NCBI GenBank assembly: GCA_963575745.1
Contig: CAUYUJ010000103.1
Location: 1 to 64,000, forward strand
Length of the DNA stretch: 64,000 nucleotides
Source of the DNA: Prorocentrum cordatum
Lineage: Eukaryota
Direction of reading: 5' to 3'
In this document: piece by piece, positions 17,540 through 60,600 of the stretch
How positions within the stretch are numbered: position 1 is the first letter of the stretch
How the letters are laid out: each line of letters begins with the position of its first letter
The notes under the pieces: generated by a model
What the model saw: only the letters and a program-made list of their open reading frames with translations
The model's database searches: none
Told to the model about the DNA's origin: nothing
Position numbers and translations under genes: made by a program

Positions 17540-18140
17540 TCAACATTGACGACAGCTTCACAGATTGAGGGCGGGTGGTTTTCAACATGTGGCTTTCGCC
17601 TTAACACCGCGCGCGTTCGTTTTCAACGCGTGTAAGAGTTTCACGGATTGAATGCGGGTGGTTTTCAAAATGTGGTTTTTGCTTTAGCGCCGCGCACATT
17701 CGTTGTCAACATTTGCAAGAGTTTCACGAATTGAGGGCGGTTTCTTTTCAAAATCTGGTTCTCGCCGTAGCGCGGCGCACATTCATGTCCAACATTTGCA
17801 ACAGCTTCACGGGTAGAGGGCGGGTCGTGTTTAACATTTGATGCTCGCCGTAGCGCAGCGCACATTCGTTTTTCAACATTTGCAAAAGTTTCACGGGTAG
17901 AGGGCGGGACGTTTTCAGCATGTGGCTCTCCCCTCAGCGCCGCGGTTAAATTTGCGCAAGAGCTTCACGGATTGTGGGCGGGACGTTTTCAACATGCGGT
18001 TCTCTCCTCAGCGCCGCGCGCATTCGTTGTAACATTGCGAAAAGGGCTTCAAGAATTGAGGGTGGTTCTTTGCAGCAGGTGGGTCTGGCTTTAGCGCCGC
18101 GCGCAGTTTTGGTAAACATTTGCAAGAGTTTCACGGGGTC
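17540..18140 (+). repeat. ~83-bp satellite, about 7 degenerate units (related units at ~13800-13990)
   Basis: Consensus caacatttgcaagagtttcacgg..gagggcgg...tggct.tcgcc.tagcgccgcgcacattcgtt recurs near 17541, 17624, 17707, 17790, 17874, 17948, 18030 and 18115. Confidence 0.9.
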
Positions 18141-20321: not shown

Positions 20322-23300
20322 TGGCTGCACATGCTCTTGCTTGCTTAACCCGCGCTGTGTGGGCGTGCAACCCCGCCGTCGCCGATGGGGATGGCAATGG
20401 GCTCGGCGGCTTCAGGGTGTCCCTCACGACGGCTGATTGCAACAGAATCGTAGCGGAAACCGTGATCGGTTTGAGCGGGGATGCGGTGGATGACGCCCTA
20501 CTTCACGACATAAGAAGGGACTGTCACAACCACGTCCACGAGGTGGGAGGGGGAGAGGGTTGAGGGGAGGCGGGGAGGAGGAGGGGAAGGAGGAAAAGGA
20601 GGGGAAGGGAGGAGGAGGAAAAGCAGGAGGGAGAGGGAAGGGAGTTGGGGGGGAAAGGGGGAAGGAGGGAGGAGGACGAGGGGGAGGAGGAAGAGGAGGA
20701 GGAAAAGGGGGAGGAGGAGGAAGAGGAGGAGGAAGACGTCTCTTCCTCCTCCGCCACAGAGCGGGCCCTGGGCAGGCACTTCGTCACAAAGCTGTTCCTC
20801 ACACAATCTTGGACGTGCGCGATGTTTTGGCGAATATGGGGAGTTGTGACATTCCCGAGGCACGGTCGGCTTTCCAAAGCGAGTGGGGCCACGAGGTTCC
20901 TTCGGATCCCGGGCCAGGGGGGTCCTTCGGGTCCCAGGGGTCCAGTGGATTCCAGAAGTCCCTGGGTAATCATCACCGACCCCGCTTACTTTCTCCAAAG
21001 GCATCGTGTCGGGCACTCGACGTCGCCGTGTCTCGTCGGGCGGCGGCGGCTGCTGCTCCTGTGGCTGCCGCCGCAGGCGCACGTCCTCCTTCTACTCCTC
21101 CTCCTCCTTCTCATCGTCCTTATCCTTCTCGTTTGCTCCATTATTCGCCCCTCCCCCTCATCCTTAAACCTCCGCCCCCCTTCGGTGCCCGACTGAGACC
21201 CGCCGCCCCATCTGGCAGAGGGGCCAGGGGCCGAGGGCGCGCTGGCGCGCGAGGGAGAGGCCGTCGAGCTCACGGCGGCGACGGAGGATCCGACGGCGGC
21301 GACGAACCTGACGAGGATGGTGCTGACCCCTGGGAGATCATTCGGCAGTTGAAACTTAAGGTTCATCGCTTGCAAATGGATGTCAGATATTGGCGGCTGA
21401 AGGCCGAGGGTTTGTCTGATAAGCTTCAGGATGCCAAGGATGACCACAATTCATACCGAGACAGGACTTCCTTGGAGTGTCATCTCGGCGGCGGTCCGAC
21501 GGGGGTCGGGGGTCGGAGAATGGGGGGGGGGGGGACTTTCAGAAACCAGGGCTTCCAAGAAGCCCCCGATAGTTTTAACGCAACGCCCGCGGGATTACAA
21601 GTATTCACCCTGGCTTTCAGGACCCCGGGGCCCCTTCTGGGCGCCGCCGATGCATCCAAAGAAAATGCGGCGAGACGGGCGAGTGCCTTCATTAAGTGTT
21701 TCTGGCGGGTACACTTTAGCAATGCGGCGTAATCAGTCTCACACTGGGTGCGATGCCATTTTGCTTCAACAAGAAAAAAAGGGGAGCCGACAGAATGCAT
21801 CGCGGTGGGAACGACTGATGTCAGCCAATATCGTTCTGCAGTCTAGAGATTACTACTTTGAGAATTACGAATACATCATGAACTTAGCCCATCGTCAGAT
21901 ACCCTCTTCTGGCATGTCTTACGAAATACATTGCATCCGCGGCGACGGGACCAACACCACCGTGGCTGGGAACAAGGCGCCTCTCTGCCATCCTCCAACA
22001 AACCTTATCATCCCACCGACCCCCCCTGGGGTGAAGTGGGATCCCGCCCAGCGTTCGCGCGATCCTGGATCCCTTATTTGTTGGGGTGGAGGGAAGGATG
22101 GGAGGGAGGGAAGGGAGGGGGGGAGGAGGAAGAGGAGGAGGAGGAGGAGGTGGTGGTGGAGGGAGAGAGGGGGGGGGGCTGGAAAAATTCAGTCGGACGG
22201 TCAATCGCCCCCTCGATTTATGCCCCACCCAGAGTGTTTTGGATTGCCGCGGGACTTTGGGTTCCTTATCCGATGGTGTACTTCGCTGACAATTGCTAGT
22301 CGTTTCAATTTTACCTATTGCCCTCAGGCCCATACGTGTGAGGTACGGAGCTGGTTCCGCCACGCTTCCATTACAGATGATGGGCGCCCTGATTATCTTC
22401 CTGCGCCGCCCAGCCGCCTGCGCGTGTGTCATGCGGATTTGGCAAAAATCCACGAGAGTTACGGGGGTGAGGAGGCGAGGGCTACATATATCAAGCAACT
22501 ATTGGGCCTTGGCATTTTCCCTTGGACATCGGAAGCTGTGTATTTCGATCAGCCAAACATGGAGACCACGAGCGACAAGCTGCCTCCCTACATGCACGTG
22601 CGGTGGTTCATTATGTGTGCAGACCAGGGCCCGGACCAGTTGGGTTGCGACAAATTAGCGTCGGGAGATGTCAGCGACATGCTGTGCACAGTGAAACTCA
22701 GAAGTTGGTGTTTGCGGCACATTGCGAATCTGATTAGAAAAACACAGCTGACGAGACTGGACAGATACAAATATTTCGGGACTTGTGCAAAAATCGCAAA
22801 CCTCTGGAGATCTTCTGGACATCCCGCCAAGATATATAACGCATATAAAGATATTACCAGCAAGGCTCGGGCGGATGAGGTGGCGAAAGTCCTTCCCCAG
22901 CGGGCTCTGCGGAACAGATGGGGATCAATCGCGAAACTTGAAGAGAAAATACTCAAGTGCGGCCGAGACGAGCTCCCTGCCGTGATTCGTCACGCCCTGG
23001 TTCCCAAAGCTAAACGTGTTGCCAGGGGCCGCAAACGCAACCTGGTCGATGACGAAGACAATGACGAGTTCGCTTATTCGGAAAAAATTTCCAGATGGGT
23101 TAAGGAAGTCGACCAGGGCTTGCACACGAATGATTTTTGGGCTTGCTTGTATATCGCAAATAAATGTTCTGGGCCGCTGGTGCATTTGGAGCGTTTTCTC
23201 GAAGGCGCCTGGAGGGGTCGGGCGCCTTGCCAAAGCTTCGGGTCGGCGAAGAACTGAGTGGGTTTTGAATCCCTGACTCCACCGAGAGGGGGAGTGGTTG

Positions 23301-26300
23301 GACTTGCAGGTGGAAGGCTGCTGAGGAGGAGGGGGTGGAGTTGGGCGCAGGAGGAGGGAGAAGGAGCGAGGAGGGGGATTTGTTCGGAGAGGATCACCGA
23401 AACTCGTTCCCTGCCCCCCCTGGCGGCGGAATGCGCAACAGCGCTCCATACGGCTCAATGGAGCTTGTTCGTCGCCAGCTTCTTCGCCGACGCGACGGCT
23501 GTGCCTGGCGCGCGCTCCGTCCATTCCCTATCCCTATCCCAGGCAGCAGCCGCGCACAGCAGCATCGGCACGGCGTTTGGAAGGATGATGACCCCATGCC
23601 AATGTTAGAGCTTGTATCGCATAAAGCACAACTCTTTTATGACGAATTCCATTATCTTCTAGTCCGTGATCCCTGGGATGATTTGATGAATGGTGGGGTG
23701 ATGGTTTCTCTTGAGCCTGGTGAGCCGTTCGAGACGTTCGTGGAACTAGCTGCCTGCTGCGTCTTAGAGATGTGGGCAGACTTCTATTGTCGAGTATACG
23801 AGCCATGCCAGAGGTATCCCAGGAGAATGATGCTTCTCGTGAAGGAAAGCCCATTGGTTGAGGATGTCACGCGCAAGCAAGTAGCGAGAGAGATGGTTGG
23901 CCCTGGGAGATCTAGGAGTCTCGACCCTGCTTCGGAGAAGGTTTCAATCTTATTCAAATCGCAATTGGAACGAGCACGGGATACGGGCGTTTTGGATCAA
24001 GGATTATGGGACTGTCTTCGGGAAGTCGCACACATGTGGCTGGTTGACACGCAAGACATCGAAGGATGTAACTCCATTCTGCGGCGCGGTGAGGGGGTCC
24101 GGGAACGCATGGAGGGGGGCCAGTGGTTGGGGCGGGGGCTTCTTCGGCTTGTTGCTTGTTGGGGGCGTTCCGATGGCTTCTTAAAGAAACCTGAGCATCA
24201 AAGAAGCGACCTGCAATATTACCGACCCCCCTCAGCCCCTATTCTCCCTCCCACCCCCAACCCCCTCGCAGCGCCGCAGACTCTTAATAAAGAGCGTGTC
24301 CAAACTGGCGCCGAATATTGGCTGGCCGCTCCTGTCCTCGCGAATCACAATCAAACGGCGGGGACTTCAGAATCTGAATCGAGATGACCGGGACGATCTT
24401 GTGAGCGCATGTGTGCATTATCATAAGGCTGCAAATGATATGATCAATGCCGAGAACGATGCCGATAGCAACGAATACAACAGATGGGCTTTTGCCAGCG
24501 TGGATGAGGTGCCCCCGCCCAAGGTCCCCCCCGAGAACCCACCGCTTCCTGCGTGTGCTTGCTCTGCCCGTGTCCTTGCAACTTTGAATAGGATCATCCA
24601 TCAGACGTTGTCACCGGCAGATGACGAAGATGATGGTGAGCCTGGAACTCGTCGCCCCAGGAAAAATTTCAACACTGAGATGGGGAAGGTTGTTCTTTGC
24701 ATCGAGTCCTGCAATGCAGCTGCGAGATATTTCGTGCCGTGTAGATATTATCGCAAGGTTCAATGGTTTTCCGAAGCCCGCTTTGTTGATTCTGTTGATG
24801 AGAGTTGCTTATTGGGGGAGATCGATCTCGACGCTGGGCGCCCCTTCCAGCCTCGGAAGGCCTTGGGCGTCATTACTGCAGCCCATTCCTCTGCCGTCAA
24901 CGAAGGGCCCGCAGGTGACTTCCAGTGCAGTCTCTGGTCATTATCTTGGGATCGCAGAAGTATTCGCTATGCTAGACTGGTCGGTGCTGTGGCTGAGCCT
25001 ATCAATATGATTGATTTGTGTTCGTGTCATGGCCGCCGGCGGCGCGGCGGAGGCGGCGGCGGCGGCAAGGGCGGCGGCGGCGGCACGGGTGGCGGCGGCT
25101 CCAGAAGAGGAGGCGGTGGAGAAGGAGACCCTGAACCACGCGAGGAGGCAGAGGGGGAGGCCGAGGAGGCAGAGGAGGAAGAAGAGGAGGAAGACCCTGA
25201 AGCCGCCGCCATCATGCGCGCATGGGGGGCCGCTGAAGCAGACTCGGACTGCCTCGAGTCAGATGATGGAGGTGACGAAGGCGATGACGACGGCTGTGGA
25301 TGGGGATCGCGACGAGGATATGTCCAGGGCTTTCGCTTGGGGGTCTGGAGACGGGCTGCGCTCGATTGAGGATATCATTAATGGCGCCATTGATGATGAG
25401 GAGGCAGTGACCGCCATGCTCAGTGCAAAGCTTGTGAGTGAACTTGGCGACGCTGGAGAGGCTGCTGATGACGGCTGCACTTCAGAGGCGCCACGGGCGG
25501 CTTCGTGGAGGGGGGCGGAGGGAGGAGGAGGAGGAGGGGGAGGGGGATGAGGAGGAGGAGGAGGAGGAGGAGGAGGAAGAGGAGGAGGAGGGGGAGGTGG
25601 AGAAGGAGGAGGAGGAGGTCTTAGAGTCCGGGGCCTTCCCAGAAACCGTCGGCAGGCCCCGAGAGAGAGAGAGAGAGAGAGAGAGCACCAATATAGATGG
25701 CCTGTTATGGGGCCCGAGCACATCCCAGGAGAAGGGCCCGGGGCCCACGCAAGGTCCAAAACGCACTTCCGCGCGTCAGGCTGAAGGAGGCGGCGTCGGC
25801 CGAGGTGGCAGAGGCCGTGGCCGAGGGGGCGGCCGAGGGCGCCATGCTGTGGCCGCTGGAGGCCCCCCGGAGCCACCGCCCGCGGGCCCTGGCGGCTCGC
25901 CCGACGGAGGCGACGAGGATGTTCGTCACGATCAGGCCCCTCTCTCCTCATCCTCTCATCCTCTCCTTCCTATTCCCTCGCCTTCCCGACCTTCCTTCGC
26001 CCCTCGCTCCAGGACTGGATCCGAGGGATTGAAAGCTTGATCTTGGCCCTGGCGTGGTTTGATAACGCGGACGTTCAGACCGCTTGCGACCACTACATAT
26101 CGTTAGCAGTCGAGCGTCTTGAGGACGACGGCTGCGTGAGCCACATTCCTCGGTGGATATATAACGACAGCGTGGACATGCAGCAAGGTCGTTTTGTGCA
26201 CGTGAGTGGCGGTGACCACAAGATGTCGGCGGCGCCCCGTTGGCGGGAAAGGGGGCAATTGCAGCAGCCCCCATCGGGGCGCTCCTGAGAAGTATCCGTC

Positions 26301-26819
26301 CAATCACTGCCCCCCTCCCCACCCGCATGCCACCGCAGCCCCCCCCCCATCTTCGGCGCGCCGCCGAATATTGGCTACGCGCGCCCGCCGCCCCCAGATA
26401 GGCTTTGGGAGCTCTCGCTTGCTGCTGATATTGAGTCGGGAAAGCTGCAGGTTGTAATCCCGAACTCAGGTGAAAAGATGTACAGGCCTTTCCACCTTCG
26501 AGGGAATATGACTTTGAACGCAGTTCGCTTCTCTCGCACAATCGGTTGTGGCAATGATCCGTCAATCCCGTGCTGCGCTTGCGGCGTTGCTGATGCCGAG
26601 TGCTGCCCTTTGTGTTTGAGGCATTTGCACGCTTGGTGCCAGCACGACGACCCTTTGCGAGTGCTGTTGGTGAGCATCGATGTCCTGAAAGAGGCTGTCG
26701 GTGATAACCTTGCGCAGTTTCACTCACATTCGGAATTGATTGCAAAGCTCGTGGAGTGGTCTGGTGCGGCCAGGTCTCTGTGCTCACTATGTAACGAAGC
26801 AATGAAGACTGAATTCTGA
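20321..26819 (+). CDS. Multi-exon hAT-superfamily-like DDE transposase with an acidic linker and C-terminal Cys-rich (zinc-finger-like) domain. One apparent frameshift near 25290
   Basis: Motifs in hAT order: EIHCIRGDGTN (D1, 21944), IMCADQGPD (D2, ~22622), WCLRH (CxxH, 22709), RWGS (22916), DTQDIEGCNS (E, 24061). C-terminus CCACG...CPLC..H.H..C...CSLC. Approximate exons: 20321-20543, 20760-20859, 21001-21076, 21219-21464, ~21630-21976, 22328-23204, 23543-24083, 24295-25487, 25780-25935, 26014-26201, 26452-26819. Donors are mostly GC/GA. Confidence 0.8.
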
Positions 26820-27426
26820 AGTCGTCGAAAACTTGGGAGTGATCGGAGGCTCGGAACGCCGTCCGAGATTTTCTTATTCTCTTCTTCCATCAAGTCTTGA
26901 CTTCACATCCCTTCCCATCGTGCCGCCCATCTCGGCCCCACCCTCCTGGTCATGCAGCTCGCCCTCCTATCTTGCCTCCCCTGCGTCCCCCCTCCTCGCC
27001 CCGCCATCTCGATTGCTTCCCTGGCTGCCCCTCCCCTCCCCCGCGCCGCGCCGCCTGACACCGCGGCCGCCGTGACCAACAGAGGCTTCCAAGTGGTCGT
27101 CCCGCCTGCCGGGGGCGAGGGGGGGGCACGGGGGGAAGGGAGGTTGAGGGACGAGGAGCGACTTACCCCCTCAAGCTGAATAGCCTAGAAAGCCAAAGCA
27201 GCAGCCCTCGACCGACGACGAACGAAAAGAGAGCGGCGCAACGCAAAGCAAGCAGGACGGATGGTTAAGTTAAGAGGTTGTGGGAGGAGGAAGAGGGGGA
27301 GAGTGGTGCGTTGTTCAATTCTACGAAGCTTGATCATGTATCATGGAACCCAAGTCATTTAGTGGCTCTCTGTCCCTCTGTTTAGCTCGACCACCCTCGG
27401 AAGCCCCAGTGCTCTCATCGGCCGCC

Positions 27427-27813
27427 ATGGCCGAGGTCGATCCCGCGCCTCAGCGCCTTCGCTCTCGCTCGCCGCATCCATATAGATTCAGAAACATCGG
27501 CGGTCAGCTCGTCCGCTACATCGACGACTTGGATCTGGATGACATGCCTGACATGCCTTCGGTTGCACTGTGGTCACGCAATCTGGCAAATTTCCCAGAC
27601 GCACGCTTCGTGGATATCACGCACCGCTTGCGCTCATACAGAAACGTGATGTTCTGCATCAAGTGTGGTGCGTGGAGTCCCGAACCTGGTAGGCTGGAAC
27701 ATCTGCTGGTGACTCCTTGCCGCGGGGACCCAACTGATCACGGCGCTTGGGTGCTTCGCGCGCTCCGTAGGGGGCAGTATCCGCGGAGGGGTAATCGCGG
27801 ATCTTTTCGCTAG
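27427..27813 (+). CDS. Small intronless protein (128 aa) with an H...CxxCGxW...C zinc-knuckle like the C-terminus of LINE ORF2
   Basis: GCCGCCATGG start context and uninterrupted frame. The motif THRLRSYRNVMFCIKCGAWS...LLVTPCRG parallels HRC...FLCIRCGCWA in the LINE at ~52040-52100. AATAAA lies at ~27826. Confidence 0.6.
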   Translation: MAEVDPAPQRLRSRSPHPYRFRNIGGQLVRYIDDLDLDDMPDMPSVALWSRNLANFPDARFVDITHRLRSYRNVMFCIKCGAWSPEPGRLEHLLVTPCRGDPTDHGAWVLRALRRGQYPRRGNRGSFR

Positions 27814-28819
27814 ATCAACCGCTGCAATAAAAGTTGGTATCGCTTCGCCTGCCATGGCAGTCGCAGTTGCCATGAGATTTGCGTATTCAATGTAGGTTTT
27901 GTGGCGCTTCCAACATCAATGAATATGTGTATGTGTATGTGCAGTATTGACAGTTGGAGCATGTAGGAAGTCCAATGCTAGTCAGCTGCTTGTGGGCAGT
28001 GCAGCTGAGACTGGGCTAAAACGTCGGAGATGAAGGGATCAACTGCAAAGCATTTCGTCAGTCGGTGGAGCGCGGGTGCGTGCCCCCTCCGCATCTCCCG
28101 TTCCTCCTCCTCCTCCTCATCCTCCTCGTCCCTTCCGTCGTCCTCATCTCCTTGTCCATCGCTTCTTCTCGGCACCTCGCCATCTTGAGAGCGGTGCAGA
28201 GAGGAATAGCAGGAAGTGGAAAAGTGGCAGCAGTAGCAGCAGAAGCTGAAGCAGAAGCAGGAGCACGAGAGTGAAGAGGAGGAGGATGAGGAGGAGAAGG
28301 TGGGGGGTGAGGAGGTGAGCGAGGTGGTTAATGAATGATACAAATCTGTACTGATGGCTTCTGTTAGCGAATGAGTTTTTCTCAAGAACCTGGGGTTTCT
28401 CGGAGAGGCCGTCTCTCTGGACTGCGTGCGGAGAGCGTAGAAACTGTTTCTTTGTTCGAATGGAAACACGCATCACTAATATGATTGTATGCTAGGTGAG
28501 GGACGCCAAGAAAGATGCAACTCCAGAAACAATGCCAGCTGGTCGCGCCTTCGCGCGCTCGGCGCAGAAGACGCGAGCGCATGCAGGGCGCGGTCGGCAT
28601 CGGCGTCCACGCGAAGGTGCTCCTCTGCTCAGGGCGAGGAATAATATCAACAGAAAACATGCGAGAGAGAGGAATAACATTATGAATAAAGAAAATGATG
28701 ATGATGATATCTAGCAAAGAATAGCTGTTTCCACTGGAGATGACTTGAGCCCCTTACATCTCAATGCGTGTGGAGCGAGACGGCATGCCATCACTTGTGT
28801 TGATGGGAACCCTGACCTC

Positions 28820-29830
28820 ATCATGCGTGTGGAGGGAGTCCCAACGCACATATGTGTGTGGAGCGGGTCCACGCACTACCATGTGTGTGGAGGGGGTCCC
28901 AACGCAGCCATGTGTGTGGAGGGGGTCCCCACGCGCTCTATGTGTGTGGAGGGGGTCACCACAACCCTATGTGTGTGGAGGGTCTCCCAACGCTCTCATA
29001 TGTGTGGAGGGGGTCCCCGCAGCCTCACGTGTGTGGAGGGGGTCCACACACTCCACATGTGTGTGGAAGGGGGTCCACACGCACACTATGTGTGTGGAGG
29101 GGGTCCCCACACCCTCATGTGTGTGGAGGGGGTCCCCACGCATACTATGTGTGTGGAGGGGATCCCCACACCCCCATGTGTGTGGAGGGGATCCCCACAC
29201 TCTGCATGTGTGTGGAGGGGGTCCCCACACTCCCCATGTGTGTGGAGGGGGTCCCCACAACCCTCTGTGTGTGGAGGGGGTCCCCACGCCCTCATGTGTG
29301 TGGAGGGGGTCCCCACTCACCCCATGTGTGTGGAGGGGGTCCCCACACACTCATGTGTGTGGAGAGGGTCCCCACACCCTCATGTGTGTGGAGGGGGTCC
29401 CCACTCACCCCATGTGTGTGGAGGGGATCCCCACGCCCTCATGTGTGTGGAGGGTGTCCCCACTCACCCCACGTGTGTGGAGGGGGTCCCCACGTCCTCA
29501 TGTGTGTGGAGGGGATCCCCACACCCTCATCTGCATGGAGTGGGTCCCCACATCCTCATATGTGTGGAGGGGGTCCCCATGTCCTCATGTGTATGGAGGG
29601 GGTCTATGCACTCCCCATGCGTGTGGAGGGGATCCACACACCCCGGCGCACGTGGAAGGGGTCTCCACACACCACCACGTGTGTGGAGGGGGTCCCAACA
29701 TCACTCATGTGTGTAGAGGGATTGCTCATGTGTGTGGAGGGTGTCCCAACGCTATCATATGTGTGGAGGTGGTCCCAACGCTCTCGGGCGCGTGGAGGGG
29801 GTCCACGCGATCACATGCGCGTGGGCATGA
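28820..29830. repeat. 29-30-bp minisatellite, ~33 copies, core atgtgtgtggagggggtcccca with dyad symmetry
   Basis: Seen directly. TGTGTGG...CCACACA arms occur within many units, with a variable 7-9-nt segment between cores and decay at both array ends. Confidence 0.97.
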
Positions 29831-30041
29831 TCCCGACATCATCCACTGTGTCTCACATGTATTGGAATAGATCCCTTCACAAACGGTATGCTGAGGAACG
29901 TCACACACTCCTCATCTGTTGGTGCTGTGTAGAGAATGGTTTTTGTCAGTAGTCATTTGTCCACAGCCATTTCAGCATAATGCTTAGCAGGTACAACAGT
30001 ATATCACCAACGCCTGCTGATTGAGTTGCGCATCATTCACG

Positions 30042-31721
30042 ATGAGCCTATCTCGGCCGCTGTGCTTCAAGCCTGGTGTTGATAACGTTGCTGATCTGGA
30101 TAGTGCATTCAGATGGTTCCAACAGGGTGTCGCTAAAATCAACGCAGATAGGTATGACATTGCACGCTTGCTGTCTGGACGCAGGCTTGATACCTCTGGA
30201 GCGTTCTTCGGCGTAGGAGCAGCAGAAATTGGTGACCGAATCATTGAATCATGTAGCCGCAACTTCTGTGAGAACACCTCTGGTTTCTCGACGCCACCAG
30301 TGCGCTTCGTTTCTAAATGGGCCATTGAGAAGAGTAGCACGTGCAGGGCAGAGATCATGCATGGCAGCCTTGCTGAACACATATTCGGTGACATTACAGA
30401 CTTCCTGCCAGCCGTGTGGAAGAGCCGATGTGGGCTGCATTCAGCAGCTGACAAGTGGTCACCTGCGCAACTGAGAGCTGAGCTACCATGCGCGAAGCTG
30501 CTGCTTCGGGCCAAGTGCTTCAAATGCAATGGAAGCTATTGCGCGCTCTCGCGCACGCATATTCACCGGGCTGGATCTCCCTGCGTCCTTCACAGCAGGT
30601 TTGGTAACCAACTCAGAGAATTTGGGAACAGTCATTTCTTATTCTACACATGGGTTGCACTTACGAGACAGCTACTTCATACGGTTGTTCTTCACGAGAA
30701 CGTGCCCGAGTTCGGAGACGAAGAACTCACCACCTTGTTCGGAGACTTATATTACGTCTTCAGAATTGAATTGACACCTGCGCAATTCGGCTGGCCAAGC
30801 CAGCGGTCTAGGCAATTCGTCATTATGATCCTGAAAGATTACATTGGTGCTGGCGCGGTGGTTCCTGAACGTGCTTCTGAGGAGATGAATGACGTCCTCG
30901 ACATGGAGCATACCTTGAAGGGCATGTTTTTTCGTTCGCGTTCGCCGCTGTTCACGTGGTCGAACTACCTGATAGCCACGGACGAAGAGGTCGAGCGCGA
31001 GACGAGATGGGCCAAGAATCGTGAGTCTGTCTTGTCACGCTGGACACCAGAGGACGGAGTGTTTCCTAAGAGCCCCGTGGACAAGGATTTCCCATCCGAT
31101 GTTTACGGCGTCGGCCTCGGGTGCCCCAGCAAAGAAGAGAGGACAGTTTATGAGTCATACCGAAAGAAGTGGCCTCGCAGCGCTTGCAACGTGAGTCAGA
31201 ACCCCATGGCAATGGGTGGAAGTAAATCATTGGCTGACGGGTCGCTGCAGACCTTGTGCAAAAGCGGCGGACTTGTCGTACTCCCAGCCCCGCCCTACAA
31301 TCCTCTTGGAAACACTAGCCCCAGGTGGATGCTTCCAGAGGAGTTATTTACTAGCATGGGGTTCCCAATCTCTTTCGAGGCGCAGCGTGCTTGCTGCGGT
31401 GCAGTTTGTTCTTTCTCTCGCGGGCAGCAAGCTCCCTCTGTCCGAAGCCCTGCATGCCAACGCTCGCAGGTGGGAAATAGCATCCACGTCAACATGATTG
31501 GCGCAATTTCAACAGTAATTGTTCTGAGAATGCAGAATCTAGGTGAGCGTCTGCAAGCGCCAGCAGCTCAGACTGGTGTCTCGTCCACCCCGGACTCCGC
31601 TCCTCCCTCCTCTGCAGCGGCAGACAGGTTTCGGCGTATTTTGACTCGAGTAAATTCGGGGTCGACGTCCCCTTCGACGGGGCCCCAGAAGAGGCGCCGC
31701 GTGCGTGGGAAGACGCACTAG
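30042..31721 (+). CDS. Intronless DNA (cytosine-5)-methyltransferase, ~559 aa
   Basis: C5-MTase motifs in canonical order: I-like SGAFFGVG (~30195-30218), II AIEK, III IFGDI, IV AGSPC (Cys at 30582), VI HENV (30693), VIII FGWPSQRSR (~30790-30812), IX RWMLPEELFTSMGFP, X QVGNSI (31473). No stops. Confidence 0.9.
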   Translation: MSLSRPLCFKPGVDNVADLDSAFRWFQQGVAKINADRYDIARLLSGRRLDTSGAFFGVGAAEIGDRIIESCSRNFCENTSGFSTPPVRFVSKWAIEKSSTCRAEIMHGSLAEHIFGDITDFLPAVWKSRCGLHSAADKWSPAQLRAELPCAKLLLRAKCFKCNGSYCALSRTHIHRAGSPCVLHSRFGNQLREFGNSHFLFYTWVALTRQLLHTVVLHENVPEFGDEELTTLFGDLYYVFRIELTPAQFGWPSQRSRQFVIMILKDYIGAGAVVPERASEEMNDVLDMEHTLKGMFFRSRSPLFTWSNYLIATDEEVERETRWAKNRESVLSRWTPEDGVFPKSPVDKDFPSDVYGVGLGCPSKEERTVYESYRKKWPRSACNVSQNPMAMGGSKSLADGSLQTLCKSGGLVVLPAPPYNPLGNTSPRWMLPEELFTSMGFPISFEAQRACCGAVCSFSRGQQAPSVRSPACQRSQVGNSIHVNMIGAISTVIVLRMQNLGERLQAPAAQTGVSSTPDSAPPSSAAADRFRRILTRVNSGSTSPSTGPQKRRRVRGKTH

Positions 31722-32352: not shown

Positions 32353-35300
32353 ATGGCTGCAGCGAAAGCTCCGGAGTGGATGGGCGACACCTTCGTGCCT
32401 GCAGTTGATGGCAATCCGTACGAGGATCGTAACTATGCTTCGCTCGAGGAGATGCCTGGGGCTGGAGCTCTCCTCCTCCTCCTCCTCCTCCTCCTCCTCC
32501 TCCTCCTCCTCTCCTCCTCCTCCTCCTCTCCTCCTCCTCCTCCTCCTCGTCCCCCCCCTCCTCCTCCTCTCCTCCTCTCCTCCTACTCTCCTCCTCCCCC
32601 CTCTCCTCCTGACCCCCTGCGCCGTTTCGGGTGGCCAGGGTGCTCTCGCAGGTTCTGTTTGGGCGCTCTCTGTGCCTAGGGGGCCTCTGTGGCAAGAATC
32701 CTACGAACGCCGCGCCCCTATCAACTTTAGGAAACAATCGAAAGACCGTCGCCTCTGAAGTTTGATAGCCCAGGGGCTCATCCTGGCTTTTTCAAAACCC
32801 TCATGGGCACCAAGAAGAGCTCAAGAGGGGGCCCACGAGCCCTCCTGGGTCCAAAGAAGACCCCAAGAAGAGCCCAAGAGGGGATCGGACAGGGTCCCAC
32901 GAGAGGCACCGAAAGGGCCCCCCTGCTGTCAAGATGGCGGCCCTCGTCCTTTACGGAAGGCCCTAGAAACATCCCTCAGGCATTCTCGTAGGCGTCCATC
33001 TCCCTCCTGTCTTCACTCTGCGTGCCCAGAGGAGCGGTGGTTCCCCTTGACCGGGCGCGTCCTGCAGAACAAGGCTCGCGCCTGCTACGTGGTGAAGGAC
33101 AGCGTTGAACCTAACGCGGGGTTGGAGAGGAGAGGAGGCGGCGCGGTCGGAGCAAGAACGGCCGGGAGGCAAATGAGGATTGAGGGCGGAGGCTCGTGAA
33201 AAGGACGGGAGAAGGAGGAGGACTTTCGTTTTCGGCCTTTCTTGGTCCTCCTGGGGGTTCCTCCTTGTCACCGCTGGATTCGCTTCGAAATTCTAGTCAG
33301 AACGCGCGCCAAGAGAGGTCCGGGGACAACGCGGACTCGGATGAGGATTGCCTAACCAGGGCCCTCGTCTTCGACGACGTCGAGGGCGACAGTGACGATG
33401 TCGAACGGCGACGAATGTCTTGGCCAGGAGCACGAGAAACTCCCATTCTTCGATCCCGACGGCGGGGAGATGTGGGAGCGCCACCCGCTCAACGACCGTG
33501 ACCAGAGTCACACCAGGGAGGAGTACGTCGCCAAGCTCGTTGACAAGGGCTGGATTATCGGCGCGAGGGGCGAAGTCACCTTCATTGAGGGCACGGATTG
33601 CTGGGATGCAAATTCACCCCCCAATGCCGACCTCGCCGTCTATCTCCCCATACTTCCTCCCCACCCTCTCCTCGCCTCCTCACTTCCTCGCCCCTATGCC
33701 ATACCTCATCCCTCCCACTCGCCCTCTTTTCCTTCCTGGGCCCTCACGCCCCGAGGAGGACCAAGAGTTTTTTTCTGGTTCGGTTCGCCCGCGTCGGGGT
33801 CCGCGGTCCGCTCCAAGTATGTTCCGCTTCGGGCCGACGATGAGCATACTGTTCAACAGACGCCAGTGCCGACCTTCCCCCATCCAGAATGATGCCCGCC
33901 CCTCATTCGTTGCTAAATGTGTCTTTTGTGTGTGGTGGGGGGGTCCGTTTCCAGGAGTACAAGACGAAGAGCGGAGTCGTCTGCAACAAGAAGCTTATTC
34001 TCGGCGGCGCCCACCTGATAGAGGCGTTCTACATCGCTCTGAAACAGCATCCGAATGCTCCGCAGTTGCACGCGAGCCTTGTCGAAGGCGTGCCTGACTG
34101 CACGCGCGTCGATGCCCGAACCCCTTCGGACGGCCTCAAGTACTTCGTCGACATCAGCAACGAGCTCAACGGTTTCGCGTCGAGGACTTCCTTCTTGCAG
34201 ATGTATCGGCGCGTTGAGGACATTGGGAAAGGCTACACCAACCACCTGAAGCGCGAGACGCAGCAGCAGCAGCAACACCAGCAGCAACGCAAATTGGCCG
34301 CCGCCGCCGCCACTTTCGAGGGGGCGCTTGCGGGCGGTGAGGGCGGCGAACCAGATGCCGCGGATCAGAAGCCAGCGGGCGCGGACAGCAGCAAACGCAA
34401 AGCCGATGACGCCGCTGACAATGCTGGCGGCGAGCAGCCTGCTTCCAAGAAACTTCGGAGTCAGGCTGGCTACGAGACCGAATACCTTAACTGGATGAAG
34501 AAGGCCTTTCCAAACACCTTCACGCACATGACTGTGTTTAAGGCGGCTCGCGCGTTCAAGGCGAAGATGGTTGAACTCAAGCAGTGGGAGCCGTTCGCGG
34601 ACTACATGGAGGCCCACGTCAAGTTCACTGAGACCTTCGATCAAGGAAACGTTATCCATTGTCAGGCGGCCGTTTTGAACGCGTTCGCAGCAGAAGCAGA
34701 AAGGCCTGACATCATGACAGAGTTCTTGGTGCCTGCATTGCGTCTTTGCGCGCCGACCAACGACGGAGTGCCCCAGGTGTGCTTCTCTGTGCGGAACACG
34801 GCTGTCAAGCTGTTCTCAGGCTTCGTTGACGTCAGGATGTCGAAGTGCGCCGAGGCAGTGGCCAAGGCTAAGGCAAGTGGAAAGACAAAGAAGGGAGCCG
34901 CCAAAGCGAAGGCCATGGGCAAGGTTGGGGACAAGGCTGTGGCCGCTATGCCGCTGCCGCCCGCTGCCAGCAAGACAACTTTCTGGGGCGACGCCCTCAA
35001 CGTGATCGCGATGGTCACCAAGGACGCAAAGAGTGTTCTCGCTGAGGTCACCTGCTGCTGCTGCTGCTGATTCAAGGCTGTCCGCCCAACCTCCCCCTTG
35101 TCCTCTTCTCTCCTCCTCCTCCCCCTCCTTCTCCCTTTAGTCCTCCTCCTCCTCCTCCACCTCCTCTCCTCCGTCTGCTCCTCCTCCTCTCCCCCTCCCT
35201 CCTCCTCCCTCCTCCTCCCATTGGGAAACGCCGAAAAAGATTATGTGACGAACCCATCGATCTTCAAGTATTCCAAACAAGTGCGGTACGAAACCTCGTT

Positions 35301-38300
35301 TTTCTAGCCGCCTTGAGCGACCCCGGGCGGTAGGCGGAGGAGGAGGCGGAGGAGAAGGAGGAGGAGAAGGAGGAGGAGGTGGAGGAGGGAGAGGTTGGAA
35401 TGCGTGGGGAGAGAAGGAGAGGAGAGGAGGAGTAGGAGTTTTTTTTATCCATCTGCGCGTCCCTCAGGTCGTGGAGGACGCGAAGTGCTACGTGATCATG
35501 CAGATCGTGCAACACGAATGCACGCTCCCGATTCGCAATGAAGGCGACGTGCAGGTCTGCTCGCGGGAAGGGGCCGTGCCAGCCCGATTTGGCGTTCCAG
35601 CGTTCCCTTGCCATGAGAAAAAACAGAAGGGCGGCGAGAAGGCCCCAGGAGGGCCTGGGCCCTCAAGGAACCACCCTTGGGCGTTCTTGAGGCTCCTTTG
35701 GAGCCCATCGCCGCAATTCCACGATTGTCCTCAGGCCGTCACGGGTCGTCATATCACCGCCTTGGGGGCCCAGGGAGGCCCGAGCCGCCATTGCGATCCC
35801 AGGCTGCTGCCAGGGAGCGTCGCGGCGGACGTTGCTTTCTGTCTTAGGTTGTCGGGCCCTAGCCTCTTCGAGCATCCTCTGGTACCTCCTGGTACATCCT
35901 CTTGGTACATCCTTCGCGGCCTTTGGAGCCTTGCAGCTTTGGGCGCTCGTGCGGGCCCGAAAAGGACCGAAGGGCGGCCCGAGAGATGGCCTGGATTCAA
36001 GGACCTTCTTGCCCCCCCAAGACGATCCTGCGGCGGCCTCAGGCCCTCGGCGTTCGTCTTCTGTGGCCCATCACCTAGGTCAAAGGCTGGACCAAGTTCA
36101 GGAAGGCCCTCGCGCGGTTCGTCATTGCCCAGCACGAATACAACGACGGCGTCAACTTGCATTTCGAGAAATTCAAGGATACGGGGTCGGCTGGCGAGCA
36201 GGGCATTGATGATGCGTCTTCTACTATTGCGGTCATGGGCCCTGTCCCTGAGGCCTTCCACGAGGGGATGGTGGTAACTTTGCGCGACTACTTGGAGAAG
36301 GATCCCGTCGATATTTCGACGTGGGACGAGGCTGGGGACTTATCCAAAGTGCTGGGGAAGGACTCTTCCATCGCCGTCGCCCGCGTCGTGTCGGCGAGCA
36401 AGGGCGCATGGGCCAGCAAGTCTCACATTTGGTCGCCAGCGATGGCAGAGGCATTGGAACCTGCAGCCGATGTCGACGCCTGCGTCAGTGAAGTGTTGAA
36501 CCAAGTCTGGCTTGCCGTAGAGGGACTGCAGCCATCGGCGGTGTGTAAGGTACTGAGCAAGTTTGTGGAATTGCCGAAAGCTGACAACTTCGAGGATCTA
36601 TCTGCCTTGGCCGACGTCCATCCAGTGTTTTGCCAGCCCCTGAAGTATTTCAAGAGTTGCGCCGACGCCGTCGTCTACTTGAACTTTCGGTCACGTTTCG
36701 TGATGTCACTGATCGACGAATCGTGCAGTGCGATGCAGGACATGATCCAGAAGAAGCAGGGCAAGCCCTCTGCGTTGGAGAACACTGTGGCGTATTTGAA
36801 GAAAGGCCTCTCTTTCGTCCGTGCAAACACAGAGAAAGTTGCGGTATCTGATTTTCGGTTGGCAGACGACTCCAGTTGGAAAAGCTTGTGGGCGAGGCTG
36901 ATGAAAAAGGCCAACGAGGAGGCTCCGAAGGAGGAGTTCGCTGCACAGAGGGAGAAGCCGTCTCAGCATTGCGGCGTGGACTTGGAATCAATGACGGCTA
37001 AAGATCTGAAGGGGTTGGCCTCCCATTTCAGCATAGCCTTCGAGAGTAGCATCAAGAAGGCGGAGCTGGTCAAGCTCATTTCTGACAAGAAGGCGACGAT
37101 TGCAGCTGCAGATGAATCGTTGCAGCAGTCTGGGCCAAACGTTGACGACTGGTGGGAGCGCCTTGCTGGTGAGTTTACTTCGGGCGTGGACGTCATCGAG
37201 AGGGCACTGGCAGAGGAAGATGAGAAGCTGACCATTGGCGAATACTATTTTCCCTCTGCGGCTCCGTCTGCGAGCGGTCTGAAGGCTCTTGGTACTGTGG
37301 CGTTCGCAATGAACGCGACCCTGAGCATGATCGACGACATCAAGGCCCACAGGGAGACCAACGTCGAGTGGATGTCTTTCAAGGCCGACGCGAACAACAA
37401 CGGACAGGTTGCAAGGCCTGTGAAGTTTCTTGGGCCATCGAAGGCCGAACTCGAAGCAGATCCGACTATCTTGGCTAAGCTCCCGTCATGCCGTCTGTTG
37501 ATGCGTGGCCGCGTCACCGCCATCCCTGCTGGAACTTCTGCGGGGCTTAGTAAGTTCTACGTCGGGAAGGCGCTCGGCGGCTACAACTTGGTCGTGACGC
37601 CGCTGAGCCCGAATCAAGACATTGGTTGGTCCATGAAGGTGGTGACGGGCGAGGACTGCTTGCCCACGATGGTCGTCGACGACGAGAGCAGCTACGATAT
37701 CGTGACAAAGGGCCCCGACGGCACGGACTGCGCTATCAAGGTCATCACGTTGATGCCGAACCCCGAGTGGATCGCCTCCCTGGCCAACCGCGTGCGCAAC
37801 GATGAGTCCGCGGACAGCGCCCGGGACGTCATGAGTAGGCGCGCCTTTCCTGAGGAGCAGGATGCGATGGACAAGGTTGCCAAGGCGCCACGGTGGAGGT
37901 GGAGGGGGGGAAGAGGAGGGGGAGGAGGAGGAGGAGGAGGAGGAGGAGGAGGATGAGAAAGAGGAGGAGGAGGAGAAAGAGGATGAGGAGGGGAGGAGGA
38001 GGGGGGGGAGGAGGGGGGGGGACAAGGAGGAGGAGGAGGAGGAGGAGGAGGGTAGGAGGAGGAACCTGGCGTCTGGGCACTCCGCCGAACGCTTGAGAGC
38101 GAGGCTCTGATGATGATGTGGAGGAGGAGGAGAAAGAAGAGGAGGAGGAGGAGGAGGAGGAGAGGACGAGGAGGAGGAGGAGGAGGAGGAGGAGGAGGAG
38201 AGGAGGAGGAGAGGAGGAGGCGAAGGAGGGGGAGGAGGAGGAGGACGGGAGGCGGGCCCCCCCTCCTGGCGGCCTCAGGCGCTGGCCGACAAGAAGGCCG

Positions 38301-38550
38301 CCAGGGAGATGAAGAAGAAGATCCTCGGTCCTGCCGACGAGACTGAGGACTCGCGGTTGGTGGGGAGAAGAGGAGGAGAGGAGGAGCAGGAGGAGGAGGA
38401 GGTGGTGAGAGGAGGAGGAGGAGGAGGAGTCCCGAGGAGGAGGAGGAGGAGGAGGAGGAGGACGAGGAGGAGGAGGACGAGGAGGGAGCAGGAGGAGGAG
38501 GAGGAGAGGAGGAGGAGGATGGAGGAGTCTGAAGATGCGGAGGTGGAGGA

Positions 38551-38581
<31 letters not shown>

Positions 38582-38719
38582 GAGGAGGAGGAGAAGGAGC
38601 AGCAACAGCAGCAGCAGCAGCAGTCCCCCTTGCCCCGAGAGGAATGGGAGCCATCCAAGATCGACAACGAGTCGAAGATGGCCCTTGCGGCAGGGCACCT
38701 TCTGGAGAAGAAGGGTTGA
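32353..38719 (+). CDS. Multi-exon protein (~1,150 aa) with a ParB/Srx-like N-terminal domain and an HeH/Rho-N-like motif. Function unknown
   Basis: Approximate exons: 32353-32448, 33032-33097, 33429-33589, 33955-35046, 35468-35554, 36079-37885, 38279-38347, ~38640-38719. Two long clean coding exons. YVAKLVDKGWIIGARGEVTFIE...LILGGAHLIEAF resembles the ParB 'G..P..V...i.dG.hR..A' pattern. DLESMTAKDLKGLASHFSI.....KKAELVKLI (~36979-37080) matches HeH/Rho-N. Confidence 0.7.
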
Positions 38720-58600: not shown

Positions 58601-60600
58601 AATCGATTCAGGTTCTGGGGAGCCTTTACTTGGTCCCAGGTGTTTTAATTCAGTGTCATTATTTTCTAAGTCTGTTGCCCAGCTCACCTGCTTTCTCACG
58701 CGCCGCCCAAGGCTACCTTCTTGGCGATCTTGTGGGCTGGGCTGCGCACCTCCTCGTCTGTAGTGGCTGGTCCGCTCGGTGTCGCGCTTGCCTTTGTCGC
58801 TGCCGTGGACCCTGGTCCCGCCATTGCCCGTTCGCAGGCACCCTCGGCTGCGGCACAGGCTGCCTCTATCCTGGCCACCTCGTGCTCGAGCTGCGACGAC
58901 GTCATCTGTGAGATGTCCGTCTCCTCCTAACGCGTTGCTGTAACTGACTCTGTCGGTGCCGCTGCCGCCAGGTACGGGTCCTCCTGCGTCGTGGCGTGCA
59001 TCGGCTTTGTTGGGGTGATGGGCGTTGCTCGCTGCAGTGGCGGCGGCGGCTGAAAAGGCTGTGTCGGTACCCATGGCCTCGGCGTTCCTCCCATCGCCGC
59101 AGGCTCGGTCGGCGTGCATAAGTTGACTTCGTCCCGCCATGGTGGTGACGTGCGCTGCCCTGGCTTTATACTCGATGGCGTCGGCTGTGGTGGCATCTTC
59201 TGGGGAGTTGCCGTGCCCCAAACTCCTGCTGGCGTCGACACCCCTCCCGATGTAGCTTTGCCCATTGGCGTGAGTGGCTCTGTCACCCCACCATCGCCTG
59301 TCTGCGGCCCCGCCGCTGCTGCAGTAAACCCCACCGATGCGGCAGCTGGCTGCATCTGGTTCGGCACGTTGGTCGTAGCCTGGTGATGGATCCACTGCAG
59401 CATGGAGGTCACGATGCCGTCCTGCCTCTGCTGCCGCTGGTTGATCTCGCTGATGAGGTTCATCATCTGCTGGTTCTGCATCAGGTGCTGCTCCATGGCC
59501 GTCGGCGCTGGCGCTGCTGGCTGCTGATGGGCGTGCTGGACAGCATCCCCTGCCTGGGTGGGCGCGGCTGCGGCAACTGATGCCGCTGCGCCTACTGTCC
59601 CCGCACCCGCCGTCGCTGCCGCAGCCGCTGCCTGCTGCATCCACTGCTGCTGCGCCGTGAGCGGGATCTGCTGGTGCATCGAGCCTGCAACGCCCCACAT
59701 GTACTGCGGCTGTGGTCCCAACGGCCAAGTCAATCCACCGGACGCATACGATGGCCCAGTTGACGATGCCATTCCATGGTTCGCAGGTTCGCCACCACCT
59801 GCGTATATTTGCTCGTCCTCCTTGTCGTCTGGCATCTCTAGCGACTCGTTCATGCAACTCTCCAGCTGATCTAACTCTATCTCGATCTCGCGTTCCTGAT
59901 CTCGTAGATCTCGTACTCTGGCTTGTGTTGCTATCAGTCGATCTCTCGCTTTGTCCTGCTTGAACTTTCTCTCGTCCTTCTGTTTCCCCACCGTGAGCAA
60001 CGCAGTGAGGCACGGCTTTTCACCATCAGCTCCATGTCGTGTTGCTTCGCGTCCTCCTCTTTGGCCGCCCGTCTGGCCAAGATGGCCATGCTGGCGATGT
60101 CCTTCATCTTGTTCTCTGCCTCGATCCCGGACGAGCTGAGGTCTGTTGCCCTCGCTGGGGGCGGGCAGTACGCACTGTGCGTCTTGGCCGCCCTGTGTGG
60201 CATGGGCGGGAGCTTCAGAATGTAGCTTCGGATATTGTTCTCCTGCTGCTGCTTCTCTTTGCCTCCGCTCGCACTTCTTGTTCTCTGGCCGCTTGGACGT
60301 GATTGCTGATTACAGTACTGGCCGCATAGACAGCGATTGTGATAGTTCTTCACATTCCTCGAACAGTTCTGGCATCTCCAGGTCATAGACATCTTTCTGA
60401 CACTCTCTTGCGCAGAATGATGAGCTGCCAGTCTTTGGTATGCGCTGTCTATCGCCACCAGAAGCCGTGCTTGGTGACGCTTTGCCCTCTCCCTGCGATG
60501 CCTTGCAGGCTCGCGGGGGGCAAGAAGAGAGTCAGGCCTGTGGGTTCGAAAAGAGAGGGATTGCAGTCTCGGATGTGTCCTGTGGATCTCAGGCCAAACC
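52640..60600 (-). mobile_element. Near full-length decayed LINE: Zn-ribbon/coiled-coil ORF1, RNase H, APE, RT, C2H2-like fingers, degenerate DNMT-like domain
   Basis: ORF1: WRCQNC...RCLCG (~60320-60380). RNase H: HCFTDGS (58151-58174), TLECLAV, VDSNS, HVKAH..HPWN. APE: GVHEGR (~57345), VDGN, RIQFI, DDRFPV. RT: GKAAG, QRGG, FLDLTAA, RPG, SFADDL (54974-54997). Zinc region at ~53800-54010. Confidence 0.88.

Follow-up and report, generated by a model that had tools for sequence, protein, structure and literature searches.

The 64,000-nucleotide stretch of Prorocentrum cordatum DNA analyzed here (contig CAUYUJ010000103.1, positions 1 to 64,000; assembly GCA_963575745.1), referred to as the window, carries two neighboring genes on its forward strand. 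The upstream gene is a single open reading frame (ORF) at 30042-31721 that encodes 559 amino acids (aa), beginning with MSLSRP and ending with KTH before the stop codon. Its product is a C5 cytosine DNA methyltransferase (DNMT) of Pfam family PF00145 (E 3e-9, 37.2 bits against a cut-off of 22). The downstream gene, at 32353-38719, is divided by introns and encodes a protein whose N-terminal domain in all probability adopts the ParB/sulfiredoxin (Srx) fold; it is termed the ParB-like gene below. The two genes are separated by a stop codon and 630 bp, and the ParB-like gene has its own ATG. The PF00145 match above its cut-off bears out a preliminary description of this DNA, which had placed the gene beside a DNMT.

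The ParB-like locus is almost certainly a real gene, and it reads as an intact dinoflagellate gene of seven exons and ~1,126 codons. Exons 4 to 6 are established by their match to a public P. cordatum protein model, P0172. Translation of 33955-35046, 35468-35554, and 36079-37827 reproduces this model at 976 of 976 residues, and the two introns within it are GT-AG introns with a G after the acceptor. The exon region 36079-37890 is also 98% identical to a P. cordatum "unnamed protein product, partial." P0172 is itself partial at both ends, starting exactly at the acceptor between 33954 and 33955 and stopping at 37827. Exons 1-3 and the 3′ end are absent from both P0172 and the model of a paralogue, P0002. 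The truncated public model misses the first ~110 residues, which make up half of the ParB-like domain, as well as the last exon. Homologues point to three unannotated 5′ exons and one 3′ exon, which bring the total to the ~1,126 codons. The resulting coding sequence (CDS) of 3,378 nt, or 1,126 codons, is open and in frame across all seven exons, and it falls inside the range of full-length family relatives (1,000-1,240 residues). The early proposal of a spliced eukaryotic gene is therefore upheld by the identity of exons 4-6 with P0172 and by the match of exons 2-3 to a homologue, P0004; the details of exons 1-3 and 7 are deduced from sequence.

Putative exon 1 (32353-32417) opens with the ATG, encodes MAAAKAPEWMGDTFVPAVDGN plus 2 bases, and is followed by a GT donor at 32418. 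It is proposed from its sequence and frame, has a phase compatible with exon 2, and shows weak similarity to the N-termini of the family (W-D..CP..R[FY]P). The phase set by ATG 32353 and the donor at 32418 matches an AG-G acceptor at either 32990-91 or 32978-79. Exon 2 would accordingly start at 32992, with 32980 as the alternative, and extends to 33091 (..ACPEERWFPLTGRVLQNKARACYV), next to a GT donor at 33092. Intron 2 runs from this GT to the AG-G at 33426-27, and exon 3 (33428-33589; EHEKLPFF...GARGEVTFIE) follows with a 3′ end at 33586, 33589, or 33595. When P0004 was compared with the window by tblastn, its residues 10-27 aligned to 33038-33091 in exon 2 (72% identity, E 1e-4), its residues 29-84 aligned to 33425-33592 across exon 3 (64% identity, E 3e-22), and a further match lay in exon 4 (E 2e-39).

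Exon 4 (33955-35046), identical to P0172, completes the ParB/Srx-like domain with its second half and continues through a linker rich in acidic residues and Q to a conserved helical middle domain with the motifs GYETEY..FP..F and PTND. Exon 5 (35468-35554; VVEDAKCYVIMQIVQHECTLPIRNEGDVQ) is also identical to P0172 and is flanked on both sides by GT-AG introns. A helical region, a helix-extended-helix (HeH)-like motif, and a conserved, beta-rich C-terminal region are encoded by exon 6 (36079-37875), with a GT donor at 37876. The 3′ limit of this exon agrees with P0173, a transcriptome-derived fragment identical at 164 of 168 residues, which ends exactly at 37875 with the GT donor next to it. A second such fragment, P0174, spans 36733-37365 and is identical at 208 of 211 residues. 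The putative last exon (38642-38719, alternative start 38597) encodes EWEPSKIDNESKMALAAGHLLEKKG before the stop codon, and its phase fits. Its frame closes with ...AAGHLLEKKG and a stop, like the C-terminal ending of the family, H(L/I/V)(L/M/V)x (HHLLR in P0015, FHLMQ in P0039, KHIMS in P0013), so 38719 appears a reasonable end of the gene, as had been proposed.

The junction between exons 3 and 4 lies inside the ParB-like domain. The peptide strings quoted in the preliminary description were all found at their places: 33518-33589 reads EEYVAKLVDKGWIIGARGEVTFIE, 33955-34032 reads EYKTKSGVVCNKKLILGGAHLIEAFY, 34105-34176 reads RVDARTPSDGLKYFVDISNELNGF, and 36979-37080 reads DLESMTAKDLKGLASHFSIAFESSIKKAELVKLI. 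The direct join of 33589 to 33955 that accompanied them stands in part. The halves of exons 3 and 4 do belong together, being contiguous in relatives that lack the intron (for example P0004, ...GARGEVTYIEGEPYKSSTGMQWTKKLTIGGGHLIEAFY), and the acceptor is the start of P0172, but the exact donor finds no such support. A cut between 33589 and 33590 would create a GG-AG intron. In the available text of a review, the dinoflagellate donors named are GT and GC/GA, plus unnamed "other boundaries" (PMC11453091), and the P. cordatum annotation pipeline had been modified for GC and GA donors (PMC10666404). Because GG is not among the donors named in the available text of these two sources, the donor at 33589 is doubtful. 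An in-frame GA donor at 33587 would give VTFI joined to EYK, and another at 33596 would give VTFIEGT joined to EYK, equal in length to the VTYIEGEPYK of P0004. A GT donor at 33575 was rejected, as it would remove the strand VTFIE, which aligns with homologues. The position of the junction can be read from the sequence only to within ~10 nt.

The N-terminal domain comprises ~170 residues encoded by exons 2, 3, and 4 (33038-34254, with two introns inside) and matches residues 10-184 of P0004. Structure prediction was carried out on P0004 (187 residues), the closest uninterrupted homologue, with a family alignment of 60 sequences; it shares 65% identity with exon 3 and 59% with the beginning of exon 4. 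The AlphaFold2 (AF2) model has a predicted local distance difference test score (pLDDT) of 92.8 and a predicted template modeling score (pTM) of 0.82. A Foldseek search of the PDB lists ParB, Noc, PadC, KorB, and sulfiredoxin at all of ranks 1-36, with a best E of 1.2e-2 and probabilities of 0.57-1.00. VIA-align, which works independently of Foldseek, was run against 48,161 representative chains and placed PadC first (Z 8.1), followed by KorB (7.3), free serine kinase (7.0), pNOB8 ParB-N (6.8), Arabidopsis Srx (6.6), SbnI (6.2), Atu1540 (6.0), and human Srx (5.6). After these eight, all of which we take to be ParB/Srx-fold proteins, the scores drop to Z 3.9, and Osa, the GmrSD protein BrxU, SspE, and Spo0J are among the entries that follow. 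SerK, SbnI, and Srx are stated to have the ParB fold in the available text of a survey (PMC12704722).

In a second look with VIA-align at the best 1,000 chains from Foldseek, Myxococcus xanthus ParB with CTPgammaS reached Z 9.2 with a root-mean-square deviation (rmsd) of 2.2 Å over 94 residues, ahead of Bacillus subtilis ParB with CDP (8.9), Caulobacter ParB (8.7), and Noc (8.5). Forty-six chains had a Z of at least 5, and the 23 entries listed there all belong to the ParB/Srx superfamily. Among viral models, ParB-like proteins again lead the Foldseek list; the best comes from Cafeteria roenbergensis virus (E 5.7e-4), and some of the listed ParB domains belong to proteins that carry a DNA methylase annotation. 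With VIA-align a Z of 7-8 is common for a best match, and values of 8-9 do not settle a fold alone; the fold is assigned because the lists hold one superfamily, with a gap below it and a low rmsd. On the strength of the P0004 model, the domain very probably has the ParB/Srx fold, in line with the original suggestion.

The loop of ParB reads G-E-R-R-x-R-A, and the active-site loop of sulfiredoxin reads G-G-C-H-R. At the position of this ParB/Srx signature the window protein has G-G-A-H-L-I-E-A. Residue conservation was counted in 59 aligned family sequences with P0004 numbering, fewer sequences covering the first half of the domain. At the column of the GxxR arginine, 45 of the 59 sequences, the window included, have Leu and 5 have Arg, so the substitution of Arg by Leu noted at the outset was correctly recognized. 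The column of the sulfiredoxin cysteine is Ala in 42 of 59, again with the window, and Gly in 13. Other residues are strongly conserved, namely E108 (55/59), Y111 (54/59), G129 (54/59), P141 (58/59), D143 (50/59), N153 (57/59), and N156 (48/59), as are R47 (37/39), N51 (39/40), R53 (37/40), and R76 (44/50) in the first half. The domain is neither a canonical CTP-binding ParB nor a sulfiredoxin. Mutation of the P-motif arginine abolished nucleotide binding in the ParB-fold survey, as its available text reports (PMC12704722).

The domain shares with bacterial ParB, Noc, KorB, and PadC an alpha/beta fold over ~95-117 residues (Z 9.2-7.3, rmsd 2.2-3.8 Å). At what we take to be the box II position, a short loop with glycine leads into a helix (G-G-A-H-L-I-E-A), and a conserved N-x-x-N stands at what is presumably the place of box III. 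In contrast to bacterial ParB, the family has lost the box II arginines (L in 45/59), and the window protein is eukaryotic, intron-containing, ~1,100 aa long, and continues into unrelated helical and beta regions. Nor does it have the helix-turn-helix (HTH), the C-terminal dimerization domain, or the ParA partner motif of partition ParB, none of which gave a Pfam or NCBIfam match. Sulfiredoxin is likewise similar in fold (Z 6.6-5.3), and the G-G-x-H of the family resembles the G-G-C-H-R loop, with 5 of 59 members reading ...H-R as Srx does. The position of the catalytic cysteine is Ala (42/59) or Gly (13/59), however, and Srx is a single-domain enzyme of ~100-130 aa, whereas here the domain heads a protein of 1,100 aa. 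Sulfiredoxin is the commonest eukaryotic representative of the ParB fold in the survey, the available text of which makes no mention of dinoflagellates (PMC12704722).

Further along the protein, a candidate HeH/SAP/Rho-N-like motif is encoded at 36979-37080, recognized by a sub-threshold Pfam HeH match and by AF2 helices. The AF2 model of exon 6, made with 22 sequences, is poor overall (mean pLDDT 49.6), but residues 300-340 reach local values of 78-84 and form a helix (307-316), a loop, and a second helix (327-349). The position of the motif is conserved in the 22-member family alignment. At E<=1, HeH is matched in 2 of 22 members, the window protein and a near-identical paralogue, and Rho_N in 1 of 22 (E 0.018). 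The modeled segment is compatible with a helix-extended-helix DNA-binding motif. The HeH/Rho-N motif of the preliminary description thus gains weak support as a predicted helix-loop-helix, and is not the "clear" one it was called, since the Pfam matches are sub-threshold. A beta-rich C-terminal region follows at 37510-37875 (..YNLVVTPL..GWSMKV..), in which ..MSRRAFPEEQD aligns with the ELTRPxxPEE of the family. Its predicted strands (exon 6 residues 478-560) have a pLDDT below 60. The protein atlas gave no usable match for exon 6.

Neither Pfam nor NCBIfam has a name for the family of this protein, which is large and diverges fast. Exon 4, used as the query of an exhaustive HMMER search, returned 146 representatives at E<=1e-3 and 42 at E<=1e-10, each representative standing for a cluster at 50% identity, and they share two conserved blocks (exon 4 query residues 15-100 and 150-330). 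Among 29 representatives looked up, the members with NCBI or UniRef names all come from P. cordatum. Other members come from a EukProt transcriptome labeled Pyramimonas sp. CCMP1952, whose entries fall into the same 90% clusters as P. cordatum proteins and are probably cross-contamination; the remaining members looked up come from environmental assemblies. All 22 long members aligned have one architecture. The N-domain leads through an acidic or basic linker to the helical domain, marked by G[YF]ET...FP..F and PT.D, which is followed by a lysine-rich linker and a long helical region. The C-terminal part consists of a short motif at the HeH site, the beta-rich region (P.W.V, ELTRP..PEE), and a short tail.

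No significant Pfam or NCBIfam domain was found in the members, apart from low-complexity matches and a DNMT in the protein P0153, and an NCBIfam scan of 4 proteins gave 0 matches, every ParB model included. No longer proteins matching exon 3 were found, and a word-index search with a family alignment, which covered lengths of 3,186-5,000 aa, likewise returned none. Metagenome contigs contained no relative of window exon 4, and with P0005 as query they gave two 11-residue pattern matches, on which tblastn found no match at the protein level. There was no relative among viral contigs (IMG/VR) with P0150 as query and no match in phages by tblastn with P0004. In full-text literature searches on ParB together with dinoflagellates or DNMT, supplements not covered, no description of the family was found. 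Three P. cordatum members (P0061, P0156, and P0157) carry the automatic UniRef name "NAD(+)--protein-arginine ADP-ribosyltransferase"; no ART domain was found in them with Pfam at E<=1, and the name might point to the C-terminal region.

The order of DNMT followed by ParB-like gene recurs in one divergent paralogous locus. P0153, a public P. cordatum model of 1,820 aa, has a PF00145 match at residues 190-463 (E 8e-4, 19.3 bits, under the cut-off of 22) and the N-domain of the ParB-like family at residues 533-706. The window DNMT aligns with residues 10-482 of P0153 at 29% identity over ~480 residues (E 6e-55), and the N-termini are alike (MSLSRP in the window, MSRP in P0153). The alignment shares FxGxG, (P/N)C, ENV, QRxR, and GN(S/C) stretches, which we take to be the classical C5 methyltransferase motifs. 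A phmmer comparison of the window DNMT with PDB sequences gave 0 matches. On the side of the ParB-like family, P0039, a cluster-mate of P0153, is 27% identical to window exon 4 in its family half. The pairing is therefore old, because the order was kept while both genes diverged to a similar degree, to below 30% identity.

The reading we favor, at a probability of about 0.5, makes the ParB-like protein a DNA-associated partner that would regulate or target the C5 DNMT. Its polypeptide begins with a domain, very probably of the ParB/Srx fold, that resembles the nucleotide-binding N-terminal domain of bacterial ParB but has lost the GxxR arginines and the sulfiredoxin cysteine. This domain is followed by the helical middle domain, by a helix pair that is probably HeH/SAP-like and DNA-binding, and by the beta-rich C-terminus, which is conserved. 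The protein would regulate or target the enzyme encoded 630 bp upstream, and its ParB-like domain would work as a module for interaction or switching rather than as the CTP-driven clamp of canonical ParB. DNA binding and functional coupling with the DNMT are what we infer.

The basis for this reading lies in its closest precedents, the ParB-like activators and ParB-methyltransferase fusions of phages. A subclass of phage thymine dioxygenases requires a ParB-like activator on double-stranded DNA, and mutations in the nucleotide (NTP) site of that activator left its function intact, according to the available text of the report (PMC13229309). Phage ParB folds are also often fused to N6/N4 methyltransferases in the available text of the survey (PMC12704722). 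In each case, as in the window, a ParB-fold protein is encoded beside, or fused to, an enzyme that modifies DNA bases. The window differs from these systems in that the partner is a eukaryotic C5-DNMT and not a 5-methylpyrimidine dioxygenase or N6/N4 methyltransferase, the genes are two and separate, the protein is several times larger, the coupling is deduced, and phage or IMG/VR collections hold no sequence-level relative of the family. A more far-reaching version of the proposal is put forward tentatively and seems rather unlikely. It envisages a large, hitherto unrecognized family of dinoflagellate nuclear proteins of ~1,100 residues, built on a degenerate ParB fold and co-inherited with a C5 DNMT as a two-gene module, which would load on DNA to direct or license cytosine methylation in histone-poor chromatin, or alternatively a new class of DNMT-bearing mobile elements. 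In eukaryotes, such a two-gene module would correspond to the phage pairs in which a ParB-like activator serves a DNA-modifying enzyme.

Several observations weigh against a DNMT partner with a ParB-like domain. The fold model is that of the homologue P0004 and not of the window's own spliced protein, ParB (PF02195) is absent from the Pfam matches of the window exons and 13 homologues, and an hmmsearch of the PDB with a profile of the N-domain family gave 0 matches at E<=10. The Pfam HeH match on exon 6 residues 304-334 has an E of 0.14 and 12.4 bits against a cut-off of 28.9, and Foldseek with the exon 6 model returned helical-bundle noise only (best E 0.08). Adjacency to a DNMT is known at two loci only, the window and P0153, and the latter may be two neighboring genes merged by the gene predictor. 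P0153 alone carries a DNMT part among the 164 proteins examined, and the N-terminal extensions of eight other members, on inspection, contained no DNMT. An old segmental duplication could, moreover, keep two unrelated genes adjacent, and in that case the protein would be a stand-alone dinoflagellate nuclear or chromatin protein unrelated to the DNMT. This explanation is doubtful, although it would accommodate the isolated position of P0153, the ATG, stop codon, and 630 bp that set the ParB-like gene apart, and the report, in its available text, that dispersed duplicates make up 64.8% of the genes of P. cordatum and that its gene arrangement is unidirectional (PMC10666404). Order and orientation preserved at ~27-29% identity is long for neutral linkage in a genome described by its authors as extensively rearranged, and phages do have ParB-fold partners of DNA-modifying enzymes in the passages available (PMC13229309, PMC12704722). 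Support for a functional DNMT module is thin. Of the preliminary proposal of an accessory factor for the methyltransferase or the transposase, the first half gains weak support from the recurrence of the order in one paralogous locus; the second half is not supported, the upstream gene having no Pfam match and a hAT-like lead below 0.9 only.

The DNMT and the ParB-like gene could also belong, as cargo or as accessory genes, to a mobile element such as a hAT-like transposon that includes the gene at ~22.2-25.4 kb, with the ParB-like protein serving maintenance or targeting of the element. Near-identical copies on at least two contigs (P0002, 96-98% identical; P0172, identical), a third transcript variant (P0173), the great size and divergence of the family, and a hAT-like lead in the protein atlas (DUF659/ZBED RNase-like, 0.89) at 22271-23254 speak for such an origin, as do the DNMT-carrying retroelements of Symbiodinium (PMC5890265) and the frequency of the ParB fold on mobile elements (PMC12704722), both as given in the available text of those sources. 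It is nevertheless distinctly unlikely. A repeat search of the 64-kb window found no terminal repeats delimiting an element; the repeats are low-complexity and satellite arrays, and the inverted repeats listed are all low-complexity. The window holds one family copy only, the gene is interrupted by at least six introns and encodes long non-enzymatic domains that are conserved, and the putative transposase lacks a Pfam match and scores below the level that counts as more than a lead. The Symbiodinium elements, SymbioLINE-Dnmt and SymbioDIRS-Dnmt3, resemble the locus in that a dinoflagellate C5-DNMT directly precedes another large ORF and the setting is multi-copy. They are LINE and DIRS retrotransposons with reverse transcriptase in the available text of their description (PMC5890265), whereas the downstream gene in the window is intron-containing and encodes a ParB-fold protein, and no reverse transcriptase stands beside the DNMT. 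A Pfam scan of ORFs in the 30-38 kb interval gave no match to a reverse transcriptase, an endonuclease, or a tyrosine recombinase, and the only RNase H match (57488-60019) lies on the strand opposite to the DNMT and the ParB-like gene. A different possibility, unlikely in our judgment, concerns the N-domain, which would be an active nucleotide-dependent switch or enzyme using CTP, ATP, or GTP through other residues and would load or slide on DNA like ParB, KorB, and Noc, with or without the DNMT. Structurally it comes closest to ParB N-domains with a bound nucleotide (Z 9.2-8.7), Arg is kept at the GxxR position in 5 of 59 members, and conserved polar residues (N51, R53, R47, R76, E108, N153, and N156) lie, as we place them, roughly at ParB box I and box III. 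The ParB fold is able to bind ATP, GTP, or CTP in the available text of the survey, where mutation of the P-motif arginine abolished binding (PMC12704722); the window and 45 of 59 members have Leu at this position, and there is no HTH, no ParB C-terminal dimerization domain, and no NCBIfam ParB match. That the copy is a decaying pseudogene, with apparent exons 1-3 as relics, is highly improbable. At both ends the public annotation is incomplete, and the best-fitting donor of intron 3 is non-canonical, but ~3.4 kb of coding sequence is open and in frame across seven exons, identical to the annotated model P0172 where they overlap, with the conserved residues of the family retained and transcriptome fragments at 97-99% identity.

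The ParB fold was already known, and so was the placing of a protein with this fold next to an enzyme that modifies DNA. What is new is the eukaryotic family, its loss of the arginine motif, its architecture, and the pairing with a C5-DNMT. Although it comprises at least 146 clusters at 50% identity, the family would escape domain-based surveys, because Pfam, NCBIfam, and PDB sequence searches see nothing. If the link to the DNMT is true, it would offer a handle on the targeting of cytosine methylation in dinoflagellates and would extend the theme of ParB-fold partners for DNA-modifying enzymes from phages to eukaryotes. The chromatin of dinoflagellates is reported to be deficient in histones (PMC6723414), and Symbiodinium to have hundreds of DNMT copies (PMC5890265), each in the available text of the source.

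The window is GC-rich (0.52-0.71 per 2-kb block), with many low-complexity arrays and split reading frames, and the 98% match of the exon 6 region to a P. cordatum protein marks it as dinoflagellate nuclear DNA. The gene called a transposase in the preliminary description is a multi-exon, coding-looking gene on the forward strand (22271-25369) without a Pfam family match. Its part at 22271-23254 gave the protein atlas lead to hAT-like families (DUF659, ZBED1 RNase-like), the score of 0.89 lying under the 0.9 needed to count as more than a lead. Between this gene and a satellite, two cysteine-rich open frames are present on the forward strand (26289-26819 and 27334-27813). They have no family match, the best being a Rad50 zinc hook at E 0.076. 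The satellite is a minisatellite at 28715-29870, immediately upstream of the DNMT ORF, with a period of ~29-30 bp and at least 26 copies, and it translates as CVWRGSPH-like repeats in three frames. The long ORFs in this interval are repeat artefacts, because the minisatellite reads through in three frames.

On the reverse strand, an open frame of 844 residues (57488-60019) has an RNase H domain (PF00075, E 3.8e-6); it probably belongs to a retroelement and has no apparent relation to the ParB-like gene. Toward the start of the window, a 300-bp direct repeat with 99% identity (14573-14872 and 15964-16263) is spaced by 1,391 bp, a tandem array of six copies of an 83-bp unit lies at 17554-18135, and a microsatellite with an 11-bp unit of GGGTCGCGGGT type occupies 3110-3476.

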